Below are positions 4,001-37,700 of a stretch of DNA of 64,000 bases, in pieces (position 1 is the first letter of the stretch; each line of letters starts with the position of its first letter). The notes beneath the pieces were generated by a model. The model ran no database searches. It saw only the letters and a program-made list of their open reading frames with translations, and was not told the origin of the DNA. The stretch spans positions 19,677,946 through 19,741,945 of the forward strand of contig NC_057749.1 in the NCBI RefSeq assembly GCF_004010195.1. The letters are read 5' to 3'. The translations under genes and the position numbers were made by a program. The stretch is from Chiloscyllium plagiosum. Its lineage: Eukaryota.

Positions 4001-4729
4001 TCATAAAAGTATCAAATGCACCTTTTAAAAATAATTACAAGCAGAATCCTGCTGGGTTCTAAATTACGTGGGCTATGACGATATTTGTGGCAGAATCAGA
4101 CAAGAAGTCTGACAAGGTCCATCTCTAAATAGGGAGCATCTTTTAATGTGTTTGCCAAGCCTGTGACAAGTTTCTTGTTAGGCAGTGGCAAGTTGCCAAT
4201 TAAAGGAGATTGTAGCTTGTTAAATGCCTTGTTGATGCCCAACTCACCTCATTAATGTTCATCTTTCTGCCAAACCAAATGTTCCAAACAAGCGAGATGT
4301 CAAGAAAACTTAACACAGTAATCAGAAGGGATACCTAGTGAATTCAGCATGTTGCCTGCCCCAAAGGATTCCAGACATTTCAGAGCATGGTCCATGGACA
4401 CTTGCTACACACATCCCACTGACATTAGCATCCAATATGTCCAATCTCTAAGAACCCTCATGGCACATCTCTGAAACTATCATTGTAAGCTGGGACAAGG
4501 ACCCTGCATTCAGGGACATGCATCAGCTCACTGACTGGACCAGGCTGCATAGTGTCATAGCACTTACTCACTCTGAGCCTACCAAGATGCTACAGCATCC
4601 CTTTCTTGCATTGCCTCACCATGTCTTTATGCACTTTTCTCACTCAGCAAGAGATACTATGCTCATATTACTTCTGTTTGCCTTGCCATTTAGCACTGAC
4701 ACAAAACCAGGAGGTTTGTTATGAATGTC

Positions 4730-7711: not shown

Positions 7712-10700
7712 GTAAGTCTAACAGAAGCAGCATTGCGTTTGCCTTTTACCACCTACTATTAGTCACCTATTTCTCTTCCAATCCCACTGAATCTAACTTC
7801 TGCACTATCTCACCTTTCCCTCTGGTCTTAGGCCTTTCTTTCCTTCTTCCTGGCAGTCCCATCTCCATTACTCACTCACATTCCCTGTCTGTCCCATAAC
7901 AGAAAATCATTCAAAAGCAAGGTATTACGGTAAACCTCTTGTCTAATAGACTGGAGCATTGTGTCTAATTATTGCCACCCCACTTCAGGAAAGATGTGAA
8001 GGCATTAGAGAAACTGCAGAAGAAATTCTTGAAAATAATTTCATAGACGAGGAGCTTCAATTATGAAAATAGATGGATTAAGGTTAGATTTATTGGAACA
8101 TTGATCGTGATGCCCAACTAAAGTCCAACATATTCCTATCTGTTTTCCATTATCAAGTATATTCAACCTTGTGTAGTAATTTGGTTTCTTTTGGTGAAGG
8201 ACAAAGTCCCATGATTGGGGAAACCGTCAGTATGATACTTTTATTCAAAATGGGACAGAAATAAAAACAGGGAACTGTAGGCCAGTTACCTTAACATCTG
8301 TCATTGGGAAAATATTAGAGCCTATTATAAAGAATATGATAGAGAATTTAGAGATACATAGCATAATCAACATGGCTTAATGAAGAGCAAGTAAAGCTTG
8401 TCAAATTTATTAGAATTGTTTGAGGAGGTTACAAGCAAGATACATAAAGGGTGATTATTATGTTCAATAGATAGATGGAGATAGTAGATGTATTATACTT
8501 GGATTACCCAAAGGTATTTGAGAAATCCTGCATATAAAGTAACTTAATAAATTAAGAGCCCATGGTGTTGAAAGCAGTGTATTAGCATGGATAAAAGATT
8601 GGCTAACTAATAGGAGATAGAGAATTGGGTTAAAAGGGCATTTTACAAAATGGCAACCTGTAACTAGAACAGTGTCATAGGGGATCAGTACTGGGCCACA
8701 ATTATTTACAATAAATATTAATGACTTGGATAAAGGAATTGAATGTACTATTGCTAGTTTTGTAGATGACACAGAAATAGATGGAAAAGCTAGGAATGAG
8801 TCCATCGAATGATATAGACAGGTCCAGTGAGTAGGCAAGAACATGGTAGATAGAACATAATGTGAGAAAATGTGAGGCTCTGCACTTGGCAGGAAGAATA
8901 GAAGATTAATGTTATTTATATGGGGAGAGCGTGTAGAAACTATAGCAGGAAGGATTTTGGAGTTCATGTGCATGAATCATGCAAACTTCATATCTTAAGT
9001 TCAGCAGGTAATAGGGAAAGCAAGTTGAATCTTGACATTTATTTCAAAGGGAATAGTTGAAAAAATATAGGTCTTGTTAGAACTACACATGACATTAATT
9101 AGGCTACACCTGGAATACTGTCAACCATTTTGGTCCTTTATCTAAGGAAAGTTATACTGGCACAGGAGGCAGTCCAGAGAAGATTCACCAGGTTTGTTCT
9201 TCTGAGAATGCATGGATTTTGTTATGAGAAGAAGTCGAGTTGATTAGCTTGTACTCATTGGAGTTTAGAAGAACAAGCAGAGAATTTATTGAAACATAAT
9301 CTAAGAGGGATTAACAGGATAGACTTGGAGAGATTGTTCCCCCTGGTGGGAAGTTCTAGAACCAAAGAGCATAACATCCGAGTAAGGAGTTGCCTATTTA
9401 AGACAGATGAGAGGATCTTTTTCTCTCAGAGGGTAGTCAATCTGTGGAATTCTATCGCGGAACATTGATGAGACTGACTCATTCGGTATATTCAAAGCTG
9501 AGATAGTCAGATCTTTAATCAGTAGGGAATCAAGTATGGGTAAAAGGCAGGACAATGGATTGAGAATGATTAGATCAGCTGGTGTCTGATTGAATGACAG
9601 GGCCAAATGACCTATTTCTGCTCCTCCATCTTATAGATGTGGTTTGCTGTGCTCATGCACTCACAGAAATGTCCACGTATGGAATTGTTTCCTGCAGGTT
9701 TTTCTAACTTCATCCTTTTGAATTAGAACTTAGAACAGTACAGCACAGTACAGACTCTTCGGCCCTCAATGTTGTGCCAACTATTTATCTTACTCTATGA
9801 TCAGACTAATTACATTGTACTAATCTTCCAAGTGCCTAACCAAGATTGCTTAAAATGTCTCTAATATATCTGACTCTACTGCCACCGCTGGCAGTGCATT
9901 CCACGCACCCACCACTCTCTGTATAAAGAACCTACCTCTGACATCTCCCCTAATCCTTCCTCCAATCATCTTTAAAATTATGTCCCCTTGTGATAGCCAT
10001 TTCTACCCTGGGAAAAAGTCTCTGACCATTCACTCTATCTATGCCTCTCATCATCTTGTACACCTCTATCAAGTCACCTCTCACCCTTCTTTGCTCCAAT
10101 GAACAAAACCCTAGCTCCCTCAACTTTTCTTCATAAGACATGCCCTCCAGTCCTGGCAGCATCCTGATAAACCTCCTCTGCAACCTCTCTAAAGCTTCCA
10201 CATCTTTCCTATAATGAGGTGACCAGAACTGAACACAATATTCCAAGTGTGGTCTAACCAGGATTTTATAGAGCTGCAGCATAACCTTGCGTCTCTTAAA
10301 CTCAGTCCCCCTGCTAACGAAAGCCAACATACCATACACCTTCTTACAACCCTATCAACTTGGGTCCTCAGAAACATAAAGGTCTCTATCATAAGTGTGG
10401 AATACCTTAGGATTTTCCTTAATCCTAACTGCCAAGGCTTTTTAATGCTCCCTTCTAGCTCTCCTTAGTCCATTCTTCAGTTCCTTCCTGGCTACCTTGT
10501 AACTCTCTAAAGCCCTATCTGATCCTTGCCTCCTCAACCTTAAGTAAGGTTCCTTCTTCCCCTTGACCAGATATTCCATATCCTTTGTCATCCAAGGCTC
10601 CTTCACACTACCCCTGATTAGTAATGCCACCATTCCACCTCTTTTGCCTCCTACCCCCATTCTTTATGAAACATCTAAACTCTGGAACATCCAATAACCA

Positions 10701-13700
10701 TTCCTGCCCCTGTGATATCCAAGTTTCCGTAATGGCCACAACATCGTAGCTCCAAGTACTGATCCATGCTCTAAGTTCGTCACCCTTATTCCCGATACGT
10801 CTTGCATAGCCACACTTCAACCCATCACACAGACTGCATCTTTGCCCTACCAAGTGTCTATCCCTCCTCACAGACTGTCTGCATGCTGTACCTGGCTGTT
10901 CACTACCTACTCTATCATCTGATCTGTAGCTCAGGTTCCTACCCCTGTGCCAATCTAGTTTAAACCCTCCTGAAGTTCTCTAGCAAACCTCCCGCCATGG
11001 ATGTCATTTCAGGTCAGTTCAGTTTAGGTACAACCTCCAGTTCAGGTACCAACTGACCTTCTTGTACAGATCCCATTTTCCCCAGAAGGTATCCCAATGA
11101 TCCATACATCTGAAGCCCTCCCTCCTACACTAGCCCTGCAGCCACTCGCTGTCTATTCCTAGCCTCACTAGCCCGTGGCACCGGTAGAAATCCTGACATT
11201 ACTATGCTCATCCTGCCTTCTAGCTTCCAACCTAATTCCATGTATTTTCTTTTCAGGTCCTTCTCCCTTTCCCTAGCTATGTCATTGGTACCGATGTGTG
11301 CTACAACCTCTGGATGCTCTTCCTCCCCCTTAAGAATCCTGTAGACTCAATCCAAGACATCCTTGACCCAGGCACCTGGGAGGCAACATACCATCCAGGA
11401 GTCCCACACACAACCACAGGATCTCCTGTCTGACCCTGTCATAATTGAATCTCCTATCACAATCACTCTCCTATTCTTGCCCCCTTCCCTTCTGAGCCAC
11501 AGAGCTAGGCTCAGTGCCAGAAACCTAGCCACTTTCTCCTGGTAGATCCGTTCCCCACAACAGTATCCGAAACAGTATACTTATTATTGAGGGGAACAGT
11601 CACAGGGGGTCCCTGTACTGTCTGCCTATTCTCTTTCTTTCTCCTGATGGTCACCCAGCTAGCTTTATCCTGTAACTTATGTACTACTACCCCTATAACT
11701 CCTCTCTATCACCCCCTCAGCCTCCTGAATGATCTGAAGTTCATCTTGCTCCAGCTTCAGCTCCAGAATTGAACATTGAATCCAGGTGCTTGATTTCACC
11801 CAGGTGGAAGAATCAGAATAATTAGAGGCAGGAAGACAATACCTTGGAGTCCAGAGACCCATCTGAGGAGATACCCATCAATGCAGGAATTAATTTCTCC
11901 TGTCACCAATTGAAAGCCTAAAGTGGGAGTCAATTGACCTCCTCACACCAAAGTCATGATTGTATCTGTTCCTGGCAGGCAAGAAAAGAGCCTTCCCAGC
12001 TGTTAAAATGGAGCAAACTGCCTGGCTGGTTATGTGTGGTTTGGCCTTGATCTTCCCTAATTTGGATATAATCAGAGGCACAGATATGGGCAGCACTTTG
12101 GCCTTTGTTGACCATCTGACTGCCTTTCTTCTTCTTACCTCTTCCCTGACAGCACTCCTTCTTTGAGCCCTACCTCAAAAAGGTACATGGTTCTGTTCTT
12201 TTGCATCTTGGTTGCTGTTCTGACAACAGCCATGTCTCCTGACCCAGTGGCGACTGCCTGTTGACTCCCAGGATATTTAGGTGGGACTCAATTTTCATGT
12301 CCTGTGTATTGATACACAGCTGAAAGCCCACTAGGCAACTACTTAAGTACTTGATAGACAGAAGGTATGGTGATCTTTCTTTTTGTGCTGCTGAGGAGGG
12401 TGGTATGTCATTTATCTTTACAGTCACCACCACACTTAAATAAAATGTCAGATTCCACCCATAGAAACAGGTAGATGGGATGGCTGAAAGCTTACTCTCA
12501 AAAGATGGATTTCCCCATGAAAATGAAGTTTACTGTAGCACAGTTGATCACATTCTTACCTCAATTGTAAAGCTCCAGACTTAACTCCAGCTTCAGAGAC
12601 TTCAACATATAATCTAGACTGATAGTTTCAGTGTACTGAGAAAGTGTACTGTTAGAGGTGCTACCTTCCAGATGAGATGTTAAACTGAGATTCTGTCTGC
12701 TTTCTCATCTGAATTTTAAAAAGTCATACTACAGATCCACATCCACAACAACGTGGATTATTCTTAGCTGCCTCTGAAATGGCTGAGCAAGTCACTCGGT
12801 TTAAGGACAATTAGGGATGGGCTACAAATGCTAGCCTTGCCAGCGACACTATGTTCCATGAAAGATTGAAAAACGTCTTACAGTAATTATTGAGAGATTT
12901 GAAGATGGGATTATAGTCACTTCCATAATACTCATCTAAAAAAATGATGTTAGTACAGTATTGGAGACCACAAACACTATTTGCACTTACTTGCATTTTC
13001 TCTGGGCATTGTGCAGGTTTATCAACTTGCGCCATGCCTATTACCACTTATATTCTCTCAGGAGGTCTACTGGAATGTACTAATTTCCCATATTTTCCTA
13101 ACATGTCATTTCAGTGTGACAAGTTTACATGGAAAGCTTATTATAAATAGAAGTTTCTGATGAAAAATGTTAACAGAGATTCCTGTGGATGCATCATTAT
13201 TGATATAAATTAATTGATAGTTCCTCTGTTCAGGAACTCCCTCAGCACAGGGTACAGCACGGTGGCACAGCGGTTAGTACTGCTGCCTTACAGCGCCAGA
13301 GACTTGGGTTCAATTCCTGCCTCGGGCAACAGTCTGTATGGAGTTTTCACATTCTCCCTGTGTCTGTGTGGGTTTCTTCCAGGTGCTCTGGTTTTCTCCC
13401 ACAGTCGAAAGATGTGCAGATTAGGTGAATTGGCCATGCTAAATTGCCTGTAGTGTTAGGTGAAGGGGTAAATTTAGGAGAATGGGTCTGGGTGGGTTGC
13501 TCTTCAGAGGGTCAGTGTGGATTTTTTTGGGCCGAAGGGCCTGTTTCCACACTGTAAGTAATCAGTCATTGCCACTTTCATTGTCTGAACAGTTGGTTAA
13601 AACTTGACTCTTAAGTGGTCTTGCATAATACTTGCTTAAGTATTTTGCTCCCCCATTGACCCTTCCTTTAGTAGTTCTTTTTTCTTTCATGGAATGTGGC

Positions 13701-16700
13701 ATTGCTGACAAGTGTGAAACTTTATTGCTGGAACAGCACAGCAGGTCAGGCAGCATCCAGGGAACAGGAGATTCGACGTTTCGGGCACAGGCCCTTCTGA
13801 AGAAGGGCCTGTGCCCGAAACGTCGAATCTCCTGTTCCCTGGATGCTGCCTGACCTGCTGTGCTGTTCCAGCAATAAAGTTTCAACTTTGATCTCCAGCA
13901 TCTGCAGACCTCACTTTCTCCATTGCTGACAAGGTCAATGTTTGTTCCCATTCCCAATTGCCTTTAACTGAGTGAAGTCAATTAAAAGTCAACCACATGA
14001 CTGTGAGTCTGGAGCCATGTGTAGGCTAGACTGGATAAGGATGGTAAATTCCCTTCTCTGATGATTTTTTGCATCAATCCGCAAACTAGCAATCTGGGCC
14101 TCTGGATTACTGGTCCTGTGTTATGAACATTACACCATTGTCTTCATATCATTGCATAATTAACATGATGGGGTAACACTAATGGACTTCATTTGACTCT
14201 GGGTTTCCTTAAGTAACACTTGTCCTGGATCCTGTGAAATTCCTGTGGGATGGGGACAGCTCTGCAATGCATGGGTGGGGATCTGGCTGCTGCTAGTTCC
14301 AGGAACAGCTGCCAGGACAGAGAACTCACAGTGACATCTTAAATATTTATCAGTGGTGTGGATAACAATTTCCATGCCTGCATCTACTAAATTATTTATA
14401 TCAAATTATTTTAGGTTTTATTTATTTTTTAATTAGCCTCTACTATGTTGCAAAAAGAGAAGGTCCTTTCTTTCCCTATCTTCAGTCCTTTAATGTAAGG
14501 CCTTGCTTTGGGCACAAAATAGGATCTTTAAGATTATGCCAGTATGCACATAATTTAATTGTGAATAACTCTCCTCCTGACTCACCAAAGCCTATCCACC
14601 ATCTACAAGGCAATATTCAAGTGCACATCCACTTCTCTGGATGTGTGCAGCTCCAACAACACTCAAGAAACTTGATACCATTTAGGACAAAGCAGTCCAC
14701 TTGATTGGCACCACATCCACAGACATTTAATCCCTCCAGCATCGACGTACAATAGCAGTGTGTACTGCCTACAAAATGCACAGTAGACATTCACCAAGGC
14801 TCCTTAGGCAGAACCTTGCAAACCCAAAATCACTATCACTTGGAAGGACGAGGACAGGCAGCAGATACAAAACAATACCACCATCTGCTGTTTCCCTCCA
14901 AATCACTCAGCATCTAGACTTGAAATTGCATCGCCAATCCTTCAGTATTGCTGGAACAAATTCCTGGAACACACTTCCTAATGACATTGTGGGTCTACCT
15001 GTAGCACATAGACTATAATGATTCAAGAGGAAGCTCACTACATCTTGTCAAGGGCAAAAAGGGATGGGCAATAAATTAAAAATAATCGAAATATACAACC
15101 AATGATTGTACATGCTTGGGACAGATAATTTGTAGAATGTGATGAATTGGAACGTGATCTTTACCATAATTTCCCGATCTCTATCTCCTACTGTTTCTCA
15201 ATCTCTGCACCTCTCTCTATTTCGTCTATCTCTTTTGACTCTTTTCCCTTCTCTGTTTCTATTTATGTTTCTCTTGTCCTCTCCCTCTTTCTCTACATCT
15301 CCTACCCTCAGCCTCTTCATCTCTCATGCCCACTCCCCTCTCCTTTTCAGTGCCTAGCTAATCACAAAGGATTGTAAGGCCTGGAGGAGTTTAGCAATAT
15401 GGAAGTGCCTTTAAGAACTGTGGAAGCAAGGATGATATGCATTTCTGGACCAGTGTAGGTCAGTAAGAACAGTGAGGAGGTCAAAGACAAAAAGGACTTC
15501 CTGCAAGTGAGGATATTGACAGTAGAGTTTTGAATGAATTGTTGACTAAAGAGATACTAAGTGGGAGGCCAACCTAGAATACATGAGAATAGTTGAATCT
15601 CAGAGGAAGAAAGGTATTAATGAGAATTTCAATAATGGATCAATGGAGGTAGTAGTAGAGGTCAAGGTATGTGGCACTGGGGAAGGACAGGATTTGGAAT
15701 TGCAAACACAGCTGATGGTGATATAGAAACCAAGTTGGAAATGGTTAAGCTTTAGGCAGATGGGAGAAGGATAGAGTTAACTGTCAAGGATTGAAGTTGT
15801 GTTAGGGACTTGTCAATATTATTGCTATTTACCATGGGAATTGCCAATATCAATTGGTGATGGAGTAATTATACTCTCCCACCAACAGAGGCAGCACAAC
15901 AGGAGGATGTAATTATATGGTCACAGATTTTTAAATTAAAATATGGGCAGAACAACATAAAATGGGAATATATTAAAATGTATGGCATTAAAATGTATGA
16001 TCAGTTACATTTGTACAGGTTGATTCAGGTGCTGTGTCTTCTCATCTCCATCTGATGGTTATATCTGAGCTCCTTGCTGAGATATTTGTATCATCGATAG
16101 CCATAGGTGAGATCTTGAAACCTGGAATTTGGCTAACATGGTTTCACTATTTAGGATAGTTGGTAAGGAAAAGCCAGGGAACTATAGATATTGGAGGGAA
16201 TCTTGAAGGACAGGATTTACATGTATTAGGATAAACAAAGGCTTATTCGGGATAGTCAGCATGGCTTTGTTCATTGGAAACTGTGTCTCACTAACTTGAT
16301 TTAGTTTTTTGAAGAAATAACAAAGAGGATTGATGAGGGTAGACTGGTGGACATGATCTATATGGATTTCAGTAAGACTTTCAACAAGGTTCCTCATGAG
16401 AGTCTGGTTAGCAAGGTTGGATCTCATGGAATACAGGGAGAACTAGCCATTTGGATACAGAACTGGCTAAAAGGTAGAAGAAACGTGTATTGAGTTTGCT
16501 TTTCAGACTGAAGGCCTGTGACCAGTGCACAAGGATCGTGCTAGGCCCACTGCTTTTCGTCATTTATATAAATGATTTGGATGGGAGCATAGGTGGTATG
16601 GTTGGTAACTTTACAGATGACACCAAAATTGGAGGTGTATTGGAGAGCGAGGAGTTCCACAGGATCTTGATGGGCTGAGGAGTGGCAGATGAAGTTTAAT

Positions 16701-19700
16701 TTAGATAAATGTGAGCTGCTATATTTTGGAAAGGCAAATCAGGGTAGGAAGTATATAGTTAATGGTGAGGTCCTGGGGAGTGTTGCTGAACAGAGACATT
16801 GGAGTGTAGGTGAAAGTGAGGACTGCAGATGCTGAAGATCAGAGTCGACAGTGTGGTGCTAGAAAAGCACAGCAGGTCAGGCAATATCCGAGGAACAGGA
16901 GAATTGATGTTTCGGACATAAGCCCTTCATCAGGCATGCCTGATGAAGGGCTTATGCCTGAAAAGTCGATTCCCCTGCTCCTCAGATACTGCCTGACCTG
17001 CTGTGCTTTTCCAACACCACATTCTTGACATTGGAATGTAGGTTCATAGTTCCTTGAAAGTGGAGTCGCAGGCAGATAGGATAGCAAAGAAAGCATTTAG
17101 TATGCTTTCCTTTATTGGTCAATGCATTAAGTGTAGGAGTTGGGAAGTCATTTTGCAGCTGTACAGGACATTGGCATACTCACACTTTTGGAACACTGTG
17201 TGCAATTCTGGTCTCGCTGCGATAGGAAGGGTATTGTGAAACTTGAAAGGGTTCAGAAAAGATTTAGAATTGGAGGGTTTGAGCTATAGGGAGAGGATGA
17301 ATAGGCTGGGGCTATTTTCCCTGGAGCATCGCAGGCTGAGAGGTGATCTTATAGATGTTTATAAAATCGTGAGGGGCATAGATAAGGTAAATAAACACAG
17401 TCTTTTCCCTGGGGTGGGGGAGTTCACAACCAGAGGGAATAGGTTTATGTTGAGAGGAGAAAGATTTAAAAGGCACCTAAGGGCAACCTTTTCACACAGA
17501 GGGCGGTGTATGTATGGAATGAGTTTCCAGAGGAAGTGGTACAACATTTAAAAGGCATCTGGATGGGTATATGAATAGGAAGGGTTTAGAGGGATAGGGG
17601 CCAAATGCTGGCAAATGGGACTAGATTAATTTAGGTTATATGGTCGGCATGGATGAGTTGGCCTGAGGGGTCTGTTGCTGTACTTACATCTCTGTCTCTA
17701 TGATTCCATCCTCTCCAGTGGTTAGCACTGCTGCCTCACAGCGCCAGAGACCCAGGTTCAATTCCCGCCTCAGGCGACTGACTCTGTGGAGTTTGCACGT
17801 TCTCCCCGTGTCTGCGTGGGTTTCCTCCGGGTGCTCCGGTTTCCTCCCACGTCCAAAGATGTGCAGGTCAGGTGAATTGGCCATGCTAAATTGCCTGTAG
17901 TGTTAGGTAAGGGGTAAATGTAGGGGTATGGGTGGGTTGCGCTTCGGCGGGTCGGTATGGACTTGTTGGGCCGAAGGGCCTGTTTCCACACTGTAAAGTA
18001 ATCTAATCTAATCTATAATCTAATCCATTATGTATTAGCCAAGCTAATATATCATCAGCAATGCTATAAGTTCTTATCTTCTGACACCTCACCACAACCC
18101 CGTTCCAACTCCAAATACAATCAGTTCTTCTGTAACATGATGGTTGTACTCTTTGCAACCCACTGTTATATGAAAATTGTGCTTTAGAAACATCACTTAA
18201 GGTGTTAGTGCTGTAATCGCGTTACAACCAACATACATTTTAAAACTTTGCACCATAGATACAGTGTCCTCAATTCATCAATCATGTTACAGCAAATTCA
18301 TGTTGACTAAATGCACATTCTAACAGGACGACACGGTGGCTCAGTGGTTAACACTGCTCCATCACAGCGCCAGGGACCTGGGTTCGATTCCAGTCTTGGG
18401 CAACTTTAAGTGGAGTTTGCACCTTCTCCCCGTGGGATTCCTCCCACAGTCCAAAGATGTGCAGGTTATATGAATTGGTCATGATAAATTGCCCATAGTG
18501 TTCAGGGTTAGGTGCATTCATCAGGGGTAAATATAGGATAATAAGATAGGGGAATGGGTCTGGTAGGGTTACTCTTCGGAGAGTCGGTGTGGACTTGTTG
18601 GGCCGTGGACCTGTTTCCACACTGCAGGGAATCTATGCTTCTATGACCTGTACACTACATCTGTTGGTTTCCATTTATTTACTCTGAGTGAAGAACTCAC
18701 TCCTCAGATCGGGCTGAGGCGTGAAATGTGGCCAGAAAGGGAAATGCGACACAAGTCTACAGCACACTGTGAAAAACTATCTGTTAAGCTCCACTCATTA
18801 GCTAATCTACTGTGCAGCTTTTGTGGATCTCTGAAACATCCTGCAGCTTAATGGAGCTCTGTTTATCTACAGACTTGTGTTGGTTGCCAGCCATCAAGTT
18901 ACATTTGGACTTTCATTTAACTTGACAATGAATCTTTTGTTCCACTGGCCCACAGGTGGGCATCAGGGAACCTCAAGTGGTGCAGAGTTTTAAGGTATTG
19001 TTTATTTTGAGTTGCTGCTGCAACCAACAGATCTTGATGTATTCCAGTATTCGTTTCATACAGCAATTAAAGTCAGACCAATCCAAACTCCCCCTTATGC
19101 TTAAGACTGGACAAACCAGCAAAAATAAGAAATAAAAACACAAAAGAAAGTCTTGCTTTTTAGAATGTCCCAAAGCTCCTCACAACCAATGAGATTTATT
19201 CTTTGAAGTGTGGTCACTGAGTTGTCAGAGTTGGGGAGAGTGTTTTTGACCCTTAGCTAGTGAGCAGTTTATACAGCTTGGTATAATGCAATTAATAATG
19301 CCAGTATTTCTCAATAGTGAGTGAAAGTTTTTGTGTTTTTTATTTGATTTGCAGATGATTGCCAGAGGAAAGAATGCTTCAGAACTCTTTCCTGCAGTGG
19401 TGAAGAATGTTGCCTGCAAAAACATTGAGGTAAGTGAAATTTCTCACTCCATTATGAGTGTGAAGGGATTTAGAGAATGAGCCTCCTAAAATCACCAGAG
19501 TGAACTACAGTAGCAGAGTGTTTTTCTCTTTTTTTTATGGAATGTGGGTGGCACTGGGAAGACTAGTATTTGTTGCCCATTCCTCATTGCCCTTTAACTG
19601 AGTAGGAGTCATCTTTTTATTTCCTCTTTTTATATCATCTATCCTTTACTGCTGCTGGATCAAAATCCCAGAACTCCCTCCTTAACGACATTTTATATCG

Positions 19701-22700: not shown

Positions 22701-25700
22701 AATAAGGGGTAGGCCACTTAGAACAGAGTTGAGGAGAAACTTCTTCACCCAGAGAGTGGTGGGTGTATGGAATGCTCTGCCCCAGAAGGCTGCGGAGGCC
22801 AAGTTTCTGGATACTTTCAAGAAAGAGTTGGATAGAGCTCTTAAGGATTGTGGAATCAAGGGTTATGGGGATAAGGCAGGAACAGATACTGATTCAGAAT
22901 GATCAGCCATGATCATAATGAATGGTGGTGCTGGCTCGAAGGGCAGAATGGCCTCCTCCTGTACCTATTGTCTATTGTGATTATTACCTGAATGTGATAG
23001 ATTGAGAAAGAGTGTGGTGTTGGAATAGATGTCCTTGTACACCAATGCTGAAAGTAGGCATGCAGGAGCAATTGGCAATGAAGAATGCAAACCGTATGTT
23101 GGCCTTCATAGTTTGTACAGGGTCGTGATGAAACAGCACCTGGAGTATCTGTCTAGTTTTGGTCACCTTACCTGAGAAAGGATGTTCTGGCCATGGAGAA
23201 AGTGCAACAAAGGTTTACCAGACTGATTCATGGGATAGCAGGACTGATGTATGAAGAGAGATTGATTGATTAGGACGATATCCTCTGGAATTTGGAAGAA
23301 TGGGGGCATTTTCACAGAAACTTAGAAAATTCTAACAGGACTAGACAGCGTAAATGCAGGAAGGATGTTTCCAATGACCAGAACTAGGGGTCACAGTTTA
23401 GGAATACGGGGGAAGCCATTTAGGACTGAAATGAGGAGAAATGCCTTCACTCTGACAGTGGTCAGCCTGTAGGATTCTTCCTATAAAAGTGGTTGAAGCC
23501 AAACTTTGAAAATCTTCAAGAAGGAGTTAGATATTGTTCTTAGATCAGAAGGAATCATAGAGTATGGGGAGAAAGCTAGAGCAGGACACTTGATTTGGAT
23601 GACTTTCCTTAGTTCATTGAATTTATATTCAATATTAATTCCGAAGATTAACAGCCAACCAGGTGCTTTACCAGGAATAAAACTGGGTGCAGGGTTGAAT
23701 TTAAAACATGTTGGATTTTGTATTTTTCGGTTGTGATTTGAAAACCTTTTGCGATTTCATGGTCAATTCTTTCTCTTCCACCTTAACCCCCACCCCGGCC
23801 TTTGCAGGTAAAGAAGTTGGTTTATGTTTATCTGGTTCGATATGCAGAGGAGCAGCAGGATCTGGCTTTACTTTCCATCAGCACCTTCCAGAGAGGATTA
23901 AAGGTCATTATTGTCAATCTTACAGTGACTTGTTATTGAATGTTACCGAGAAACTATCTCCTTTTCCTGTTGTAGCTGTTTGAAGTTATTTATATTTATT
24001 TACTCAATGCAATAATGGTCCAGGTAAGAGTTATTAGCACAACAGAGCATAGTCACTCTGGAGGAGGATATTGACTCTGGAGTAATCATTGGGTTGTCAA
24101 TATATTACATGGTTTACAGGCAAAGTGGCTTGAACCAATTATCTTCCTTGCCAATGGGGAAATCACATATGTCTCTCTTTGTCTTTTTCTGTAACTTGAA
24201 AAAGAAGCTTCCCTGTTTCAGACGGCCTGTATTTCACTGTGAAGGTGACAGCCATGTGATATTATTGTTAAACTATTAATCCAGAGACTCAGCTAATGTC
24301 TGGGGACCTGGGTTCAAATCCTGCCATGGAAGATAGTGGAATTTGAATTCAATGAAAATATAGAATTAAGAGTCTAATGATGATCATGAATCCATTGTCA
24401 ATTATTGGAAAAACCCATCTGGTTCACTAATGTTCTTTCGGGAAGGATTTTGTCATTCTCAGCTACATGTGATTCCAGACCCACAACAATGTGGTTAACT
24501 CTTAATGGGCAGTTAGGGATGGGTAATAAATGCTGGCCTAGCTAGTGATCCCATCCCATGAATCAATACAAAAAAATTAAAATGTCAGAATCAGTCTCTA
24601 AAATAGAAGAAATGCAGAATTTGAAAGAGAAGTTATGTAAATCTCTGACTATGTCAGGAGTAATTACTTTTCCACTTTGGCACTGAACAGCCTTCAGTAC
24701 TCAACATTGAGTTCAACAACTTTAGAGCACAAATTTTGTCCTCCATTTTGATTACCACCCTTCCCCCATATACATAATTCTGTTCTCAGTACCTATTTTC
24801 TGTTATTAACACCTACTCTTCATCCAAATGTCTTCTCTGTTACAATTAGCACTCTCTTTGCCTTTTGCTGTCAGACACCTTTACCATCTGTTCCACTTGC
24901 TCCACTTACCCCTTTTGTGAAACAAAGAATTCATAACTTTTTCAGCCCTCTTCAGTTTCAAAGAAGGGTCACTTCGGACCCAAGTGTTAATTCTGTTCCT
25001 TTCTCCACAAATGCTGCCAGACTTGCTGAGCATTTTCAGTAGTTACTATTTTTATTTCACAAGTGATTTCTGGGCACCTCACCTCCAGAATGATTTAAGG
25101 GTTTTGGAGCAACTGTACCACAGACTCACTAGAACCATATTAGGAAATAAATTCTGGGCCAGGTTGCTTGGACTAGGCTTGTGTTCCTTTGGATATCGCA
25201 GATAAGATGTGATCTAATTGGGATGTTCAATTTGATTAAAGGGAATTGGTGGAGTAGATAGTGGTCATTGTGTATTGTAATTCACTCAGGGATTGAGTTG
25301 TTGTGGCAAAGAGTACCAGTACACATATGTTGTATCCAGAACTATGGATAGTTATGTTAGAGGCTTCAACTTTCACATGGCTATTAGAAATCTTTCATGT
25401 TCTTACTACCTGCCAGTGGTATGTGTTCAAAGGATTTTCACTTGATAGCCAATCCATTCTGAAGAAGAATGTTTGTTGTCTTTCATTTTCTACAAAGGCT
25501 GCCAGACTTGCCGTGTTTCTCTGACACTTTCTGCTTTTATTGTTTACAATCAACCTATATGGCCATATTGTGAACATCCCTTTCTTGAGAATTTAGTCCT
25601 TCAGTGGGACTTGAAGAAACAGTTGACAGATAGAAACTGTTTCCTCTGTTTGGTGTGAATGGGGAGACGACAACAAGGTGTGTAACCTTAAAATTGCAGC

Positions 25701-28700
25701 TCGACTGTCTGCAGATGATTAGCTAGATGGATTAGCCATGGGAAATGTGAGGTTAGAGAGATAGGGTAGGAGTTGGGTCTGGGTGACATATGCTTCCTTC
25801 TTTTTCTTGACCAAACCCTCAATTTCTCTAGTCCTCCAGCATTCTCTACACCTACCAGCCTTGCCCTTCACCTGAACAGGAGCATGCAGTCTTTGAACTC
25901 TCGTTATCTTATTTTTCAAGGCTTCCCATTTTCCTGCCTTGCCTTTCCTTGCGAATATCCGCCACCGCCCACCAATTAACTTCTGAAAGTTCTTGCCTAA
26001 TACCATCAAAATTGGTCTTCCTCCAATTTAGAAATAACACTTTTAGGTCTGGTCTATCCTTTTCCATCACTATTTTAAAACTCGTAGAATTATTGTCACT
26101 AGCTCTAAAGTGCTCCCCAACTGACACATCAATCACCTACCTTGACTTATTTCCCAAGAGTAGGTCAAGGGTTGCAGGTACATCCGCATACAAAATCAAA
26201 AAATTTTCTTGTACACGCTTAACAAATTCCTCCCCATCTAAACCCTGAACACTATGGCAGTCGCAGTCTCTGTTTGGGAACTGAGATCTTCTTTCACATT
26301 TGTTTCTCAATTTCCTGCTGACCAATGAGGCGGGGGGGGGTCAATAGTACATTCCCAACAAGGTGATCATCTCTTCCTTATTTCTCAGAAATGCCATCTT
26401 TCAAAGGGAATAACAGTTCATACTCAATGAGAAATGGGTGCTGATCGGTTAGCAGTTCAACTCTGCATGGTTATAGCCTTGTCCTGAAAAATGTGCCAAG
26501 AGCAATTGTACTTATCTCATTTGTTTAATTCAAAAATGGCACAATATCCATGGATGTACCTTTTGACTGCAGACAACAGATTCCTGCATATGAGTATGTG
26601 TAGCTTCCAGCATGCATAAGTGAGCCACATTGTGAAATGGACTGATAATCTTAAATTGGTGGTAAGTGTAATTCTTAATACTCTGGATTGTTTTTCCTAC
26701 TTCTAGGACCCAAACCAGCTGATTCGAGCCAGTGCCCTCCGTGTCCTGTCCAGCATCCGTGTCACAATTATCGTCCCCATTATGATGCTGGCAATAAAAG
26801 AGGCTGCATCTGACATGTCACCTTATGTCAGGAAGACAGCTGCCCATGCCATTCCAAAACTCTACAGGTAAAACTTTCACATGATCCCTTGCATTGCCAG
26901 ACAGTGGGAACTCTTGGAAATTTTGTTGTGTCTTTTATTAATAGACATGAAAACATGTGAAAAATCTTAAATATTAGGGTTCTTGCAGACGCACTAGCAA
27001 CTGAGAGTAACTATGTTTTGGAGGAATGCCTTTTGTGTTGTATAATTTCTATGGTTCTGTGGAATGGGTGCCAATATAATTGCAAGAAAATGAGGACTGC
27101 AGATGCTGGAGATCAGAGTCAAAGAGTGTGGTGCTGGAAGAGCACAGCCGGTCAGACTGCATCCAAGGGGCAGAAGAGTCAATGTTTCGAGCATAAGCTC
27201 TTCATTATGCTCGAAACATCTACTCTCCTGCTCCTCAGATGCTGCCTGACTGGCTGTGCTTTCTCAGCACCATACTCTTCAACCCATTATAACTGCACTA
27301 ACCGAAGACTACAGTGAATGTTCAAAAACTTAAATTTCACCAAGAAGAAAATAACTTGCATGACAACACATAATCCAATTAAGAGTTATTAACACAACAG
27401 AGTGTAGTCACTCTGGAGAAGGATATTGACTCTTGAGTAAGCATTGCGTTGTCAATGTATTACCTGGTTTTCAGGTAAAGTGGCTTGAACCAATTATCTC
27501 CCTCGCCTATGGGGAAATTGCATACATCTCGCTTTGTCTTTATCAGTAGCCTGAAAAAAAACCTTTCTGTTTCAGCTTGCCCTGAATTTCACTGAGGAGG
27601 TGATGGCCTTGTGATATTATTGCTAGACTTTTAATCCAGGACCTGGGTTCGAATCCTGCCATAAAACATGGTGGAATTTGAATTCAATAAAAATCTGGAA
27701 TTAAGAGTCTCTGAATTTTCTGTTAATGTTCAAAGACTTACGTTTCACCAAGAAGAAAATAATTTACATGGCCACATTGTGGGGGTCTTTTGTGACCTCG
27801 GGATTTTCCAAAGTGCTTTATTGCCAACAAAATACTTTTGAAGTATTAACTCAATCTTAATGCAGGAAGCAGAATAAGTCAATTTATGTACAACAAGCTC
27901 CTCCAGACAGCGATGGGATAAATGATTTAGAAAGGACATTTTGAAGAATTCCATAGCGTAATGTATAATAAGGCTCACATGATATATTCCTAGTTACTAG
28001 GTTACTAGTAGTTACTAGGTGTTTTCATGCATAATTAACAAAATCAATAATCATTTTTAGAATGTTAAAAATCACACAACACCAGGTTATAGTCCAACAG
28101 GTTTAATTGGAAGCACTAGCTTTTGGAGCAACACTCCGAACCTGATGAAGGAACGGCGCTCTGAAAGCTAGTGCTTCCAATTAAATCTGTTGGACTATAA
28201 CCTGGTGTTGTGTGATTTTTAACTTTGTACACCCCAGTCCAACACCGACATCTCCAAATCATTTTTAGAATGAGCTAGATTAAATTTGTTGATATAATTT
28301 ACTGGTTTACCAATTATCAATTGGTAAATTACCAAAGTAATACTGTCACATCAGTAGAATGTGATATGAAATTGTGGGAAGATCTTCACTGTAAATACAT
28401 GGAAATCTGGGTGCAGTTCAGCATTTGTTAACACCTGTCAATGATTCAGGACCTTTCATTCCCATTGGTGAAGCTTGTTTGTTTGACTTAGGTAGTTCAG
28501 TGTTTTTTTTCCTTACTCTTTCATTGAATGTGGACAATAAAGGAAAGGCCAGCATTGTTCATTCCCAATTTACCTTGAATTGAATTGTTAGGCCATTTCA
28601 GAGGGGAGTGGAGAGTCGATTACTTTGCTGTGGGTCTGGAGTCATGTGTTGGCCAGACTTAGTAAAGAAAGCAGATTTCATTCCTCAAATGCCATTAGTG

Positions 28701-34700: not shown

Positions 34701-37700
34701 TGATGCAAAATACTTGTTTAATATCTCCCCATCTCCTGCGGTTCCACACGTAGGCTGCCTTGCTGATCGTTGAGGTACCCCATTCTCTCCCTAGATACCC
34801 TTTTGTCTTTAATGTATTTGTAAAATCACTTTGGATTCTCCTTAACCCTATTTGCCAAAGCTATTTCATGTCCCCTTGTTACCCTCCTGATTTCCTTCTT
34901 AAATATACTCCTACTGCCTTTATACTCTTATAAGGATTCACTCAATCTCTCCTGTCTATACCTGACAGATGCTTCCTTCTTTGATTTAACCAAAGCCTCG
35001 ATTTCTCTAGTCATCCAGCTTTCCCTACACATACCAGCCTTTCCTTTCACTTTAACAGGAATAAAGTGTTGCTGGAAAAGCGCAGCAGGTCAGGTAGCAT
35101 CCAAGGAGCAGGAGAATCGACGTTTCAGGCATAAGCCCTTCTTCAGCCCTTGAAGAAGGGCTTAAGCCCGAAACGTCGATTCTCCTGCTCCTTGGATGCT
35201 GCCTGACCTGCTGCGCTTTTCCAGCAACACATTTTTCAGCTCTGATCTCCAGCATCTGCAGTCCTCACTTTCTCCTAACAGGAATATACTGACTCTGGAC
35301 TCTTGTTACTTCATTTTTGAAGGCTTACCATTTTTCAGCCGTCCCTTTACCTGTGAACATCTGCCCCGGTCTGCATTTGAAAGCTCTTGCCCTCCAGAAC
35401 TAGAGGGCATAGGTCTAGGGTGAGAAGGGAAAGATATAAAAGAGACCTAAGGGGCAACTTTTTCACACAGAGGGTGGTTTGGGTATGGAATGAGCTGCCA
35501 GAGGATGTGGTGGAGGCTGGTACAATTGCAACATTTAAGAGGCATTTGGATGGGTATATGAATAGGAAGGGTTGGAGGGATATGGGCCAGGTGCTGGCAG
35601 ATGGGGCTAGATTGGGTTGAGATATCTGGTCAGCATGGACGGGTTGGACCAAAGGGTCTGTTTCCATGCTGTACATCTCTATGACTCTAATACAGTCAAA
35701 ATTGGCCTTCCACCTATTTAGAACTTAAATTTTACATCCGGTCTATACTTTTCATCACTATTATTAAAACTAATAGTATTATGGTTGTTCGCCCCAAAGT
35801 GCTCCCCCACTGACACCTCAGTCACTTGCCCTGCCTTATTTCCCAAGAGTAGGTCAAGTTTTGCACCTCCTGTAGTAGGTACATCCAAATACTGAATCAG
35901 AAAATTTTTCTTATGCACTCTTAACAAATTCCTCTCCCTCTAAACCCTTAACAATATGGCAGTCCCAGTCTATGTTTGGAAAGTCAAAGGTCTGTACCAT
36001 AACTACCGTATTATTCTTACAGATAACTGAAATCTCCTTACAAATTTGTTTCTCAATTTCCCACTGACTATTAGAGGGTTTATAATACAATCCCAATAAG
36101 GTGGTCATCCTTTTCTTATTTCTCAGTTCCACCCAAATAACTTCCCTGGATGTATTCCCAGATGTATGGGTGGCAGGGTGGCACAGTGGTTAGCACTGCT
36201 GCCTCACAGCGCCAGAGACCTGGGTTCAATTCCCACCTCAGGCGACTCTCTGTGTGGAGTTTGCACATTCTCCCCGTGACTGCGTGGGTTTCCTCCGGGT
36301 GCTCCGGTTTCCTCCCACAGTCCGAAAATGTGCAGGTCAGGTGGATTGGTCATGCTAAATTGCCCATAGTGTTAGGTGTAGGAGAATGGGTCTGGGTGGG
36401 TTGCACTTCAGCGAGTCGGTGTGGACTTGTTGGGCCGAAGGGCCTGTTTCCACACTGTAAGTAATCTAATCTAATATATCCTCCCTAAGTACAGAGGTAA
36501 TGCTCTCCCTTATCAAAAACATCACTGCCCCTTCTCCCTTTCTATCTTTCTTTTGCATTTGTATCCTGGAATATTAAGCTGCCAGTCCTGTCCATTCCTG
36601 AGCCATGTTTCTGTACTTGCTATGATATCCCAGTCCCATGTTCCTAACCATACTCAGAGTTTATCTGCTTTCCCTGTTAGGCCTCTTGCAATAAAGTAAA
36701 TGCAGTTTAATTTATCAGTCCTACCTTGTTCTCTGCTTTGTTGCTGCCTGCTCTGACTGTTTGACTTGCTCCTCTTCCCAACTATACCAGTCTCAGATTG
36801 ATGTCTTGCCTCATTATTTCCCTGCTCCCCCACCCCCCGCACCACCTTACTGGTTTAAATCCTCCCAAGCAGCTCTAGCAAATCTCCCTGCCCGTATATT
36901 AGTCCCCTTCCAAATCAGGTGTAATCCGTCTTTCTAGATACAGGTCACTTCTACCCCAGAAGAGATTCCAATGATCCAAAAATGTGAACCATTCTCCCCT
37001 GCACCAGCTCCTCAGCCATGCATTAATCTGCTCTATCCTCCTATTCCGACCCTCACTAGCTCATAGCACCAGGAGTAATACAGATATTACTACCGTCTAG
37101 GATCTCCTTTTTAAATTCCTGCCTAACTTTCTATATTCTCCCTTCAGAATCTCATTCTTTTCCTGTTTGTTTCACTGCAATAAAGTAAGCCACATGAAAT
37201 CACAGTGTTGGTGGGTGAGGAAAAGCACTTGGAAGACAGATGTAAGGAAACAGGATAAGCCAGTGAATTTTGTTGGAGTGGTAACGCAAAGCACAGTGGA
37301 GGCAAGAAAGTTGCAGCAGAATGTACAACCTGGTCGGAGGTTGGTTAAGCAGTAAGTGAATGATCTTCTTAAACCATTTATTTGCGAAGGTAAAGTTTAT
37401 TCACAGGCCAGGAGCAGCAGGTAAAGAGGTTACAATATTAAGAGATGTAGGATCCTCTCAATCTTTAATGTTGAAAGATGAGGAGCTATGTACCTCCAAA
37501 GGAGTATTGCCAGAAAAAATGCTAGTAACTGAAATTTATGGTGAGATAAGGAGTGCTCAGTTATGTAGAGTGAGTTTAGATTGTCCAGTGAAAAGTGGAA
37601 AAGTGCTGGTGGGGGACTGGAAAAACTCTCAGCTCCAGGAATACAATTTGTCCTCGTTAATGATATAGCTGGTGCACAGGAGGGAGTGCTGTCAACTATG

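Follow-up and report, generated by a model that had tools for sequence, protein, structure and literature searches.

A fold-back insertion in the Chiloscyllium plagiosum genome is very likely a young, extremely 5'-truncated copy of an abundant Penelope-like element

Results

Anatomy and age of the insertion

Positions 13713–13920 of the window (the whole 64,000-nt stretch of DNA analyzed here) very likely stem from an abundant Penelope-like element (PLE) that inserted here very recently, as an extremely 5'-truncated copy that was dead on arrival. The insertion contains the last ~125 nt of the element in the sense orientation, from the hammerhead core to the tail, and the first ~86 nt of this stretch are repeated in the antisense orientation and joined to it head-to-head. 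The two arms (13715–13798 and 13801–13884), 84 nt each, are 100% complementary and lie 2 nt apart, while the target-site duplication (TSD) on either side of the insertion is a perfect direct repeat of 13 bp. The copy has no ORF and no pseudo-LTR pair, and is non-coding. A preliminary description, made from the letters of the window, had reported the inverted repeat, the 2-nt spacer, the 36-nt tail and the 13-bp TSD; all of these were reproduced here, and its reading of these features as those of a non-coding PLE retro-insertion is supported. The features are as follows.

13690..14060 (approximate limits), no strand: older interspersed repeat that received the insertion
13700..13712, no strand: left copy of the TSD, CATTGCTGACAAG, identical to the right copy in 13/13 positions; present once in empty-site contigs
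13713..13714, no strand: TG dinucleotide between the TSD and the inverted arm, unpaired with the right arm (the repeat begins at 13715)
13715..13798, minus strand: inverted (antisense) 5'-truncated PLE arm, its end being the proximal 3' end of the family, which has no tail (position ~86–92, numbered from C3 of the hammerhead)
13797..13798, no strand: 2-nt junction microhomology CT; in the family alignment it can be assigned equally to the inverted arm, as its last bases, and to the direct arm, as the CT that opens CTGAAGA
13797..13824, plus strand: minimal hammerhead core lacking the 5' strand of helix I (descriptor match; features as in PMC4209133)
13799..13800, no strand: 2-nt spacer GA, the symmetry centre
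13801..13884, plus strand: direct (sense) PLE arm
13885..13920, plus strand: 36-nt "tail", the distal 3' end, in one arm only and with no partner in the left arm
13921..13933, no strand: right copy of the TSD, CATTGCTGACAAG

As RNA, the hairpin has a minimum free energy of –182.4 kcal/mol with an 83-bp stem, and a single DNA strand folds at –117.1 kcal/mol.

The insertion is very recent, as had been proposed, because its arms are 100% identical and the empty site occurs both in a related species and in a run labelled as the same species. Position 13699 is joined directly to 13921 in record 6 of the same-label run X1 (846 nt), and equally in records 14 (797 nt) and 29 (449 nt) of the related species, organism B. 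The preliminary description had suggested looking for the TSD at an empty site, and each of these three contigs holds a single TSD copy. As, moreover, the old repeat around the insertion has a paralogue (L038) that is unbroken at the corresponding site, the TSD is genuine. The only X1 contig over the unique left flank has the empty form, and no short-read contig was found across the filled junctions, the filled allele being seen only in the assembly. The PLE family has been active recently, and perhaps still is.

Family of the element

Longer copies of the family extend upstream into the end of an ORF. The C-terminus visible in this genome comprises 163 aa (L003:1282–1770) and contains IIYCIRCGLLYIGETGR as well as a CxxC...HxH motif; the latter, like YIGETGR, was spotted by eye, and the Pfam GIY-YIG model scores 18.4 bits on this fragment (E=0.0028), under the cut-off of 22.6. 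Relatives of the ORF end, taken from other records, were also compared with Pfam. One (P0007) matches RVT_1 at 30.1 bits (cut-off 29.6) and GIY-YIG at 21.3 bits, and another (P0004) matches RVT_1 at 24.9 bits and GIY-YIG at 23.6 bits (cut-off 22.6). The longer relatives of the ORF carry RT (RVT_1) followed by a C-terminal GIY-YIG domain, the RT being seen only in the relatives from other records. The window copy belongs to the A subtype, of which the sample contains no long copy, and this subtype is linked to the ORF-bearing B/C type solely by 84–85% nucleotide identity. Among the papers listed on Penelope, sharks and hammerheads, none describes the window's PLE family.

Letters of the A subtype seem to be far commoner in organism A than in organism B, in terms of summed contig depth, which does not equal copy number and is not evidence.

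Census of fold-backs

Eighty-three PLE arms and 22 head-to-head pairs were identified in a sample of ~335 kb (334,974 non-N bases), comprising the window and sampled loci of the same genome. The window itself holds five further fold-backs, four of them with arm identities of 95, 94, 85 and 83% and the fifth, a large one, with 93%. The architecture thus recurs across the genome sample, with a turning point that differs from copy to copy. For example, among A-type copies the centre is CCCTTCT-GA-AGAAGGG in the window and CAGGAATTCCTG at L018, while L028 is a solo arm with its own TSD. As these near-identical copies differ in their turning points, the fold-back is formed anew at each insertion. 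The centres of the 18 tight pairs (spacer of at most 30 nt) are scattered over positions –35 to +43, and the younger fold-backs have exact TSDs of 11–17 bp. The notion of a distinct "mini-element" therefore gives way to that of a routine PLE integration product, with 18 tight fold-backs in ~335 kb, each with its own turning point; the fold-back architecture at 13713–13920 is ordinary, and the shape is already known for the PLE class. Still, a larger fold-back, at 58888–59793, recurs at L002, L004 and L012, where its internal structure is preserved at ~97% identity and the flanks differ; some fold-backs therefore seem to spread as units.

Exactly one tail is present in 18/18 tight pairs. Out of 39 solo arms, 20 are tailed, 17 end at position 78–100, and two end elsewhere; given these counts, simple arithmetic sets the chance of 18/18 one-tail pairs at ~3e-6 if the arms were independent. 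In the three wide pairs (spacers of 337–445 nt) no tails were scored, and at least one of these pairs may bear a diverged tail. The 5' ends also show a marked preference: 35 of the 72 scorable ends are localized at –8 to +8 from C3, none at –20 to –9, and six at +9 to +20. Perfect palindromes of this size are deletion-prone, and the asymmetric or shortened centres of older copies may reflect palindrome decay.

Hammerhead core

The boxes of the core are CTGAAGA (13797–13803), A (13804), GGGC (13805–13808), CTGT (13809–13812), GCCC (13813–13816), GAAA (13817–13820), CG (13821–13822) and TC (13823–13824), with the palindromic ACGU at 13820–13823; the symmetry centre, 13799/13800, falls within the CTGAAGA box. 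This is where the preliminary description had placed them. The CUGANGA box comes first, followed by helix II and then by the GAAA and UH boxes (13797–13824); helix II of the window copy, GGGC/GCCC, has 4 bp, a CUGU loop and an extra A in front of it. No box of the minimal PLE hammerhead, as published, is missing from the right arm, and the predicted cleavage site is after C13824. The earlier claim of a ribozyme core holds for the catalytic boxes, all of which are present, and fails on completeness, as the native 5' strand of helix I (ATTC) has been replaced by the inverted arm at the turning point and at most two pairs remain. The bases upstream of the core are CCTT, where only G-U and A-U pairs are possible, short of the ~4–5 bp expected of helix I. 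On the minus strand, the fold-back reads CTTCAGA where CTGANGA is expected.

The hammerhead boxes are not due to chance, because a generic minimal-hammerhead descriptor has 30 matches in the 335-kb sample and none in each of 20 shuffles. The extra base between A9 and 10.1 is present in 30/30 descriptor matches, and the 10.1–11.1 pair is G-C in 35 and G-U in five of the 40 distinct rows. In helix I of native copies (ATTC/GATT) the third pair is unpaired in 33/40 rows, and 64.4% of the cells are paired overall. Helix II is paired in 96.9% of cells within the family and nearly invariant, with a double change in two cells. Covariation in stem II, a check proposed earlier, was not distinguishable from shuffles of the family alignment with its nearly invariant stem, the score being matched by 122/500 of them. 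Where the window family has UUC/GAx, GGGC/GCCC and ACGU, another family in the sample, unrelated to it, carries CAC/GUG, GGAG/CUCC and AGCU, respectively; these substitutions fit the hammerhead fold, in a comparison that spans two families only.

The proposed comparison with Rfam hammerhead models gave no match at E≤10 in 13300–14300, in positions 1–200 of the window or in L020 900–1130, native-context copies included, and no Rfam family reached its gathering score over the whole window. The hammerhead test is a weak one, because the published minimal motifs came from a custom descriptor. We do not expect the transcript of 13713–13920 to cleave itself or to have a function for the host, because in the modelled fold all core bases would be locked in the 83-bp RNA hairpin.

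Surrounding repeat and host gene

The older interspersed repeat that spans the insertion site has three paralogues with 72–77% identity. The insertion indeed lies inside an older repeat, which the preliminary description took for a SINE. The host gene is an AP-3 beta subunit gene, on the plus strand and in the same orientation as the element. The preliminary description had placed the hairpin in the AP3B2 pre-mRNA, of which the AP-3 beta gene stands, while the beta-2 identity and the intronic position are unproven: the solved structures compared are only AP-3 beta-1 and unnamed beta chains, and no AP-3 beta exon was found by Pfam upstream of 13.7 kb among the 150 longest plus-strand frames (all of at least 39 aa). 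These were taken from 262 plus-strand open frames of at least 28 aa in window positions 1–23800, and the sole Adaptin_N match in this exon scan is at 19325–19477 (E=7.3e-4, below the cut-off). Probably, the insertion is neutral and is situated upstream of an AP-3 beta subunit gene or within an early intron of it.

Discussion

Alternative explanations

Several other origins of the hairpin have to be weighed against a truncated PLE insertion. It might be a mobile non-autonomous master fold-back, the whole transcript of which is reverse-transcribed and inserted, and the recurrence of the 58888–59793 structure at L002, L004 and L012 (~97%, different flanks) is what such an origin would look like. 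However, the near-identical A-type copies differ in turning point, one of them being a solo arm, and the centres of the 18 tight pairs spread from –35 to +43, which makes this origin very unlikely for the hairpin at 13713–13920. A perfect inverted repeat inside a direct repeat also resembles a MITE or a foldback-type DNA transposon with terminal inverted repeats; yet here the arms meet centrally without an internal segment, a 36-nt unpaired extension at one end renders the ends asymmetric, and the TSD is not of fixed length, varying from 11 to 17 bp among copies. As the sequence is, moreover, the 3' end of an RT/GIY-YIG retroelement, and solo arms with TSDs exist, a DNA transposon is the least probable of the origins considered. 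Hardly more probable is an assembly artefact, i.e., an inverted duplication introduced during assembly or through a chimeric long read: it agrees with the lack of short-read contigs over the filled junctions and with the empty form of the sole X1 left-flank contig, but would yield neither a TSD of 13 bp nor a 36-nt tail on one side only, nor the exact architecture that 17 other tight fold-backs of all ages share.

One might further consider a working RNA element of the host gene, either a precursor of the microRNA type or a ribozyme whose self-cleavage acts on the AP-3 beta transcript, as the CUGANGA...GAAA...UC core is intact, the orientation is that of the gene, and Rfam reports sub-threshold microRNA hairpin matches, the best being mir-4776 with 52.9 bits (gathering score 97). 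These matches score equally on both strands and therefore merely reflect the perfect hairpin. Since the related species and one contig with the same species label lack the insertion, it is not a conserved part of the gene; helix I is lost and all core bases are paired in the hairpin, and even complete metazoan PLE hammerheads have low activity (PMC4209133). A host function is accordingly very improbable, and the truncated PLE insertion is the reading retained below.

Proposed integration mechanism

Genomic footprints suggest a model with two strands and two start sites. The PLE enzyme (RT plus GIY-YIG nuclease) would cut the two target strands 13 bp apart and prime cDNA from both. On the template RNA, one cDNA would begin at the distal of two internal start sites and so include the tail, and the other, at the proximal site ~35 nt upstream, leaving no tail. 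Both would halt at a common point, the 5' edge of the hammerhead, where a short RNA transcribed from the initiator-like TCATTCC in the pseudo-LTR (a putative start) probably has its 5' end, and the two cDNA ends would then be joined via the 2-nt microhomology. We put forward only tentatively that the footprints record PLE integration in vivo, with a staggered cut primed on both strands by a paired enzyme complex, the distal start always being used on one side and the proximal one on the other, both cDNAs being copied from one short RNA whose start, at TCATTCC, precedes the hammerhead by 4 nt, and the machinery being still active in this vertebrate, as the empty allele would indicate. If this is true, the genome offers natural data against which the in vitro model of PLE integration can be checked.

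Significance

The insertion is probably inconsequential for the host gene, and at most the fold-back gives rise to double-stranded RNA or to instability of the palindrome. It is notable mainly since some sequenced animals retain the empty site, and it offers a presence/absence marker. Its value is that of a clean, dated example of PLE integration, with unmutated arms, a perfect TSD, a 2-nt microhomology and a known empty allele. Taken with its older relatives, it yields two simple rules, one tail per fold-back and a hot spot of 5' ends at the hammerhead edge, and a whole-genome survey could compare both with the model of PLE reverse transcription recently derived in vitro.

Comparison with known systems

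In twin priming of human L1, which produces 5' inversions, each target strand primes a cDNA and microhomology links the two, and the inverted part derives from a different, upstream part of the RNA. Here, in contrast, both cDNAs copy the same segment, and a palindrome results.

Canonical endonuclease-containing PLEs (Penelope/Poseidon/Neptune) share with the window family RT followed by GIY-YIG (in the relatives of the latter) and a hammerhead near the 3' end. As far as the available text on these elements goes, heavy 5' truncation, a head-to-head 5'-truncated copy, a 30–40-bp tail at one end and variable-length TSDs are common to both as well. The available parts of two papers describe head-to-head inverted 5'-truncated PLE copies with palindromic junctions and a 30–40-bp tail at one end (PMC8557442, PMC3846280), and the tail is also described in the available part of a third (PMC11167929). 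Unlike the canonical elements, the window copy is reduced to ~125 + 86 nt, with no ORF and no pseudo-LTR pair.

The minimal hammerheads of metazoan PLEs (Cervera and de la Pena, 2014; PMC4209133) have the same CUGANGA, GAAA and UH boxes, the same unpaired nucleotide between A9 and 10.1, and the same G10.1–C11.1 pair. They likewise lack helix III, have a palindromic ACGU (15.2–16.2) able to pair in a dimer and a short helix I, and occur as opposite-strand pairs. The difference is in helix II, which has 4 bp here and 6–8 bp in the published motifs of Schistosoma and Drosophila (PMC4209133), and in the 5' strand of helix I, which is gone from the window copy.

The closest experimental parallel concerns the Poseidon PLE of the green anole (Frangieh et al., 2024; PMC11167929). 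According to the available part of this paper, the enzyme in vitro cleaves and extends both target strands, as proposed here, and reverse transcription starts from two adjacent internal sites that delimit the tail, with the hammerhead some tens of nucleotides upstream of them, as in the window family. The same text reports that the choice of the start site does not depend on whether the top or the bottom strand is extended; therefore a strict one-tail rule does not follow from this part of the work (PMC11167929), whereas 18/18 tight fold-backs in our sample use one start site per side.

Structure and Location of the Fold-Back

The element at 13713–13920 has the arms, gap, tail and flanking duplication ascribed to it in the preliminary description.

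Features of the window fold-back and of its host gene
13700–13712 and 13921–13933: target-site duplication (TSD), CATTGCTGACAAG
13715–13798: left arm (antisense), 84 nt
13801–13884: right arm (sense), 84 nt, 100% complementary to the left arm across a 2-nt gap
13797–13824: hammerhead string CTGAAGA-A-GGGC-CTGT-GCCC-GAAA-CG-TC
13885–13920: one-sided unpaired tail, 36 nt, without partner
19325–19477, plus strand: weak Adaptin_N exon
23802–23903, 26641–26886 and 50294–50476, plus strand: Adaptin_N exons, with more downstream past the window end

As the hammerhead string spans 13797–13824, the symmetry centre (13799/13800) falls inside the first hammerhead box. The computed RNA fold of the element is an 83-bp hairpin (–182.4 kcal/mol), and the palindrome as single-stranded DNA is computed to fold at –117.1 kcal/mol.

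Two exons match residues 126–178 and 202–259 of AP-3 beta-1, far better than AP-1 or AP-2 beta, further AP-3 beta exons are found past the window end (C40:19752204 and C40:19758762), and, judging by sequence similarity, the host gene is that of the AP-3 complex beta subunit. The fold-back is oriented as this gene, 5.4 kb upstream of its first detectable exon, and would be located either ahead of the gene or within one of its early introns.

The insertion lies 135 nt downstream of the end (approximately 13563) of an older, extremely abundant repeat (window 13450–13565, summed contig depth in millions in all four sequencing runs), which is distinct from the less abundant old repeat spanning the insertion site. 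Weak RVT_1 fragments on the plus strand at 8198–8377, 8681–8809 and 16305–16490 (E 0.0035 to 0.09) are probably decayed remnants of other retroelements.

Age of the Insertion

Contigs from four public runs were aligned to 13450–14200. An 846-nt contig from X1, a run with the same species label, matches 13536–13699 and 13921–14200 at adjacent record positions with three differences, and represents an empty site with a single TSD copy, as had been anticipated for a vacant site. Empty sites are also seen in a 797-nt contig (run X14) and a 449-nt contig (run X9) of organism B, a related species, at approximately 96% identity; therefore, the insertion is younger than the split of the two species, and the very recent origin suggested in the preliminary description is borne out by the contigs of both organisms. 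In the contigs of run X6 the left flank is outside coverage. A paralogue of the old repeat around the site is continuous across the insertion point. Either the insertion is polymorphic in the species, or the assembled individual, of which X1 may itself be a sample, is heterozygous for it.

Within 13759–13891, letters of the young A subtype, to which the window copy belongs (e.g., 13839, 13875–13881), constitute a far larger share of the summed contig depth in organism A (the same species label) than in organism B, which hints at a lineage-specific burst, with the caveat that summed depth does not equal copy number.

Copies of the Family and Formation of Fold-Backs

BLAST with the right arm as the query identified more copies in the window, including four tight fold-backs, each with its own flanking duplication.

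Further fold-backs in the window
57051–57266: tight, arms 95% identical, spacer 2 nt
35059–35274: tight, arms 94% identical, spacer 5 nt
16812–17029: tight, arms 85% identical, spacer 0 nt
27085–27279: tight, arms 83% identical, spacer 8 nt
58888–59793: large, 307-nt arms, 93% identical

Searches with two long reference copies found 83 arms, of which 39 are solo arms and the rest form 22 head-to-head pairs, in 334,974 non-N bases (the window, 20 stretches of 10 kb in its neighbourhood, a further five of that length on other contigs, and the protein-search loci). What had been taken for a distinct mini-element is one among many such insertions of a Penelope-like element (PLE). The similarity-independent part of the sample (window and 25 stretches, 303,201 non-N bases) contains 65 arms, approximately one per 5 kb, which by rough extrapolation to 3.56 Gb gives several hundred thousand arms.

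Each fold-back was formed at its own insertion, since the same young subtype shows differing centres: CCCTTCT-GA-AGAAGGG in the window copy and CAGGAATTCCTG in the copy at 4083–4303 of sampled locus L018 (97.5–98.9% identity to the window copy), and L028 contains a third copy of this subtype, a solo arm flanked by a 12-bp duplication of its own. The younger fold-backs have exact flanking duplications of 11–17 bp, and arm-to-arm identity falls from 100% to approximately 80% across copies, as expected if the arms start identical and then decay.

A composite fold-back of about 900 bp, comprising, in both orientations, the end of the PLE open reading frame (ORF) with the untranslated region and hammerhead that follow it, occurs on four contigs (window 58888–59793, L002 1214–2133, L004 1258–2085 and L012 1200–2024). 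Its copies share approximately 97% identity and a common internal structure in unrelated flanks, as if the composite had been copied whole. In the window, CAGAAGGA may be an 8-bp duplication located just beyond the matched ends. At the extreme end of the ORF we observe a 63-nt (21-codon) tandem duplication, with two copies in window 59330–59460 and five in L004 (minus strand, 156-aa open frame).

Tails and 5′ Ends

Exactly one arm reaches the tail in all 18 tight pairs (spacer up to 30 nt), the partner arm stopping at position 80–94, counted from C3, the first base of the hammerhead. Among the 39 solo arms, 20 have the tail, 17 end at 78–100, and two elsewhere; no tail was scored in the three wide pairs, each of the large 58888–59793 type. 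One pair with a 55-nt gap proved to be two separate insertions.

The 5′ ends are within 8 nt of C3 in 35 of the 72 arms whose ends are limited by neither query nor edge, with none at –20 to –9 and six at +9 to +20, and TSD-bearing solo arms show the same clustering. The 5′ ends show no pile-up at position 28/29, where cleavage is predicted, just two arms ending nearby. Both in solo and in fold-back copies the ends gather at position –4 from C3 (e.g., L020 960–1000), at the native TCATTCC, which fits an initiator consensus; copies of the B/C type have a T/A-rich box approximately 25–32 nt upstream of it. The short copies would then be run-off cDNAs from RNAs starting in the pseudo-LTR, and in tight fold-backs both target strands would be primed, one from each start site. 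We infer, rather than demonstrate, this run-off origin and the two-strand priming from separate start sites.

Hammerhead Motif

The minimal metazoan PLE hammerhead is described as comprising the catalytic boxes, an unpaired nucleotide between A9 and 10.1, the G10.1–C11.1 pair and a short helix I, with palindromic 15.2–16.2 and without helix III; activity is reported to be low and probably dimeric, and opposite-strand motif pairs are reported as well (Cervera and de la Pena, 2014, PMC4209133). A generic descriptor built from these features matches the sample at 30 sites, against zero in 20 block-shuffled versions. All 30 contain the extra unpaired nucleotide; 25 belong to the window family and four to a second family whose helices differ, the remaining match being doubtful.

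The core boxes of the proposed hammerhead are indeed present at 13797–13824, but the ribozyme is incomplete. In most native copies helix I is just ATTC/GATT, and 33 of 40 rows lack its third pair. The inverted-arm end (CCTT) stands in for the native ATTC strand in the window copy, leaving two possible helix I pairs there, and the minus-strand mirror copy reads CTTCAGA, not CTGANGA; therefore, the ribozyme core of the window copy is truncated and lies buried within a hairpin. The checks suggested at the outset gave no further support: Rfam hammerhead models at E<=10 match neither the window copy nor two native-context copies, and covariation in helix II, which is 96.9% paired and nearly invariant in 46 aligned copies (40 distinct rows; one of 47 candidates was dropped for an internal deletion), is indistinguishable from shuffles, 122 of 500 reaching its score.

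The second, unrelated minimal-hammerhead family has the form CACCTGATGA-A-GGAG-(5 nt)-CTCC-GAAA-GC-TA-GTG and is present in L018 (minus strand, approximately 1731–1770 in plus coordinates), L024 (minus strand) and L032 (6258 and 9648). The sequences of its helix I, helix II and palindrome differ, the boxes and the extra A being the same; in L024 it, too, forms a head-to-head fold-back.

Comparison with Known Penelope-Like Elements

Some copies extend upstream of the hammerhead through a 200–300-nt untranslated stretch to the ORF end, and, when the visible 163-aa C-terminus is used as a tblastn query, the coding end maps directly upstream of long copies of both the F and B/C types (e.g., L006, L018, L020, L031, L038); the window copy is 84–85% identical to the B/C-type reference. 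The visible fragment contains CxxC...HxH followed by IIYCIRCGLLYIGETGR...EH, and its match to Pfam GIY-YIG (E=0.0028) is under the cut-off. Longer relatives in the protein collection have a reverse transcriptase (RT) followed by GIY-YIG in Pfam searches: P0007, RVT_1 30.1 bits (cut-off 29.6) and GIY-YIG 21.3 bits; P0004, RVT_1 24.9 bits and GIY-YIG 23.6 bits (cut-off 22.6). Among named matches, the closest come from the shark Chiloscyllium punctatum (uncharacterized proteins, 88% and 75% identity). By homology, the family is a Penelope-like element, its RT being known from the relatives' proteins; the preliminary description had named the family correctly. The window insertion is a miniature textbook PLE insertion and no new kind of element; worth keeping are the empty allele and, across the family, the regularities in the tails and in the 5′ ends.

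The enzyme of an anole PLE was shown to cleave and extend both target strands in vitro and to initiate reverse transcription at two internal sites next to each other, which mark the limits of the tail, and the hammerhead is protein-assisted and dispensable for insertion (Frangieh et al., 2024, PMC11167929). The window family is like the published PLE architecture in its inverted truncated copy, head-to-head palindrome and one-sided tail: an inverted 5′-truncated copy adjoining the 5′ end and a 30–40-bp tail, often at one end only, are described by Craig et al. (2021, PMC8557442), and one inverted pseudo-LTR with a 31-bp tail, palindromic head-to-head junctions and TATA/initiator-like motifs within the pseudo-LTR, by Arkhipova et al. 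(2013, PMC3846280).
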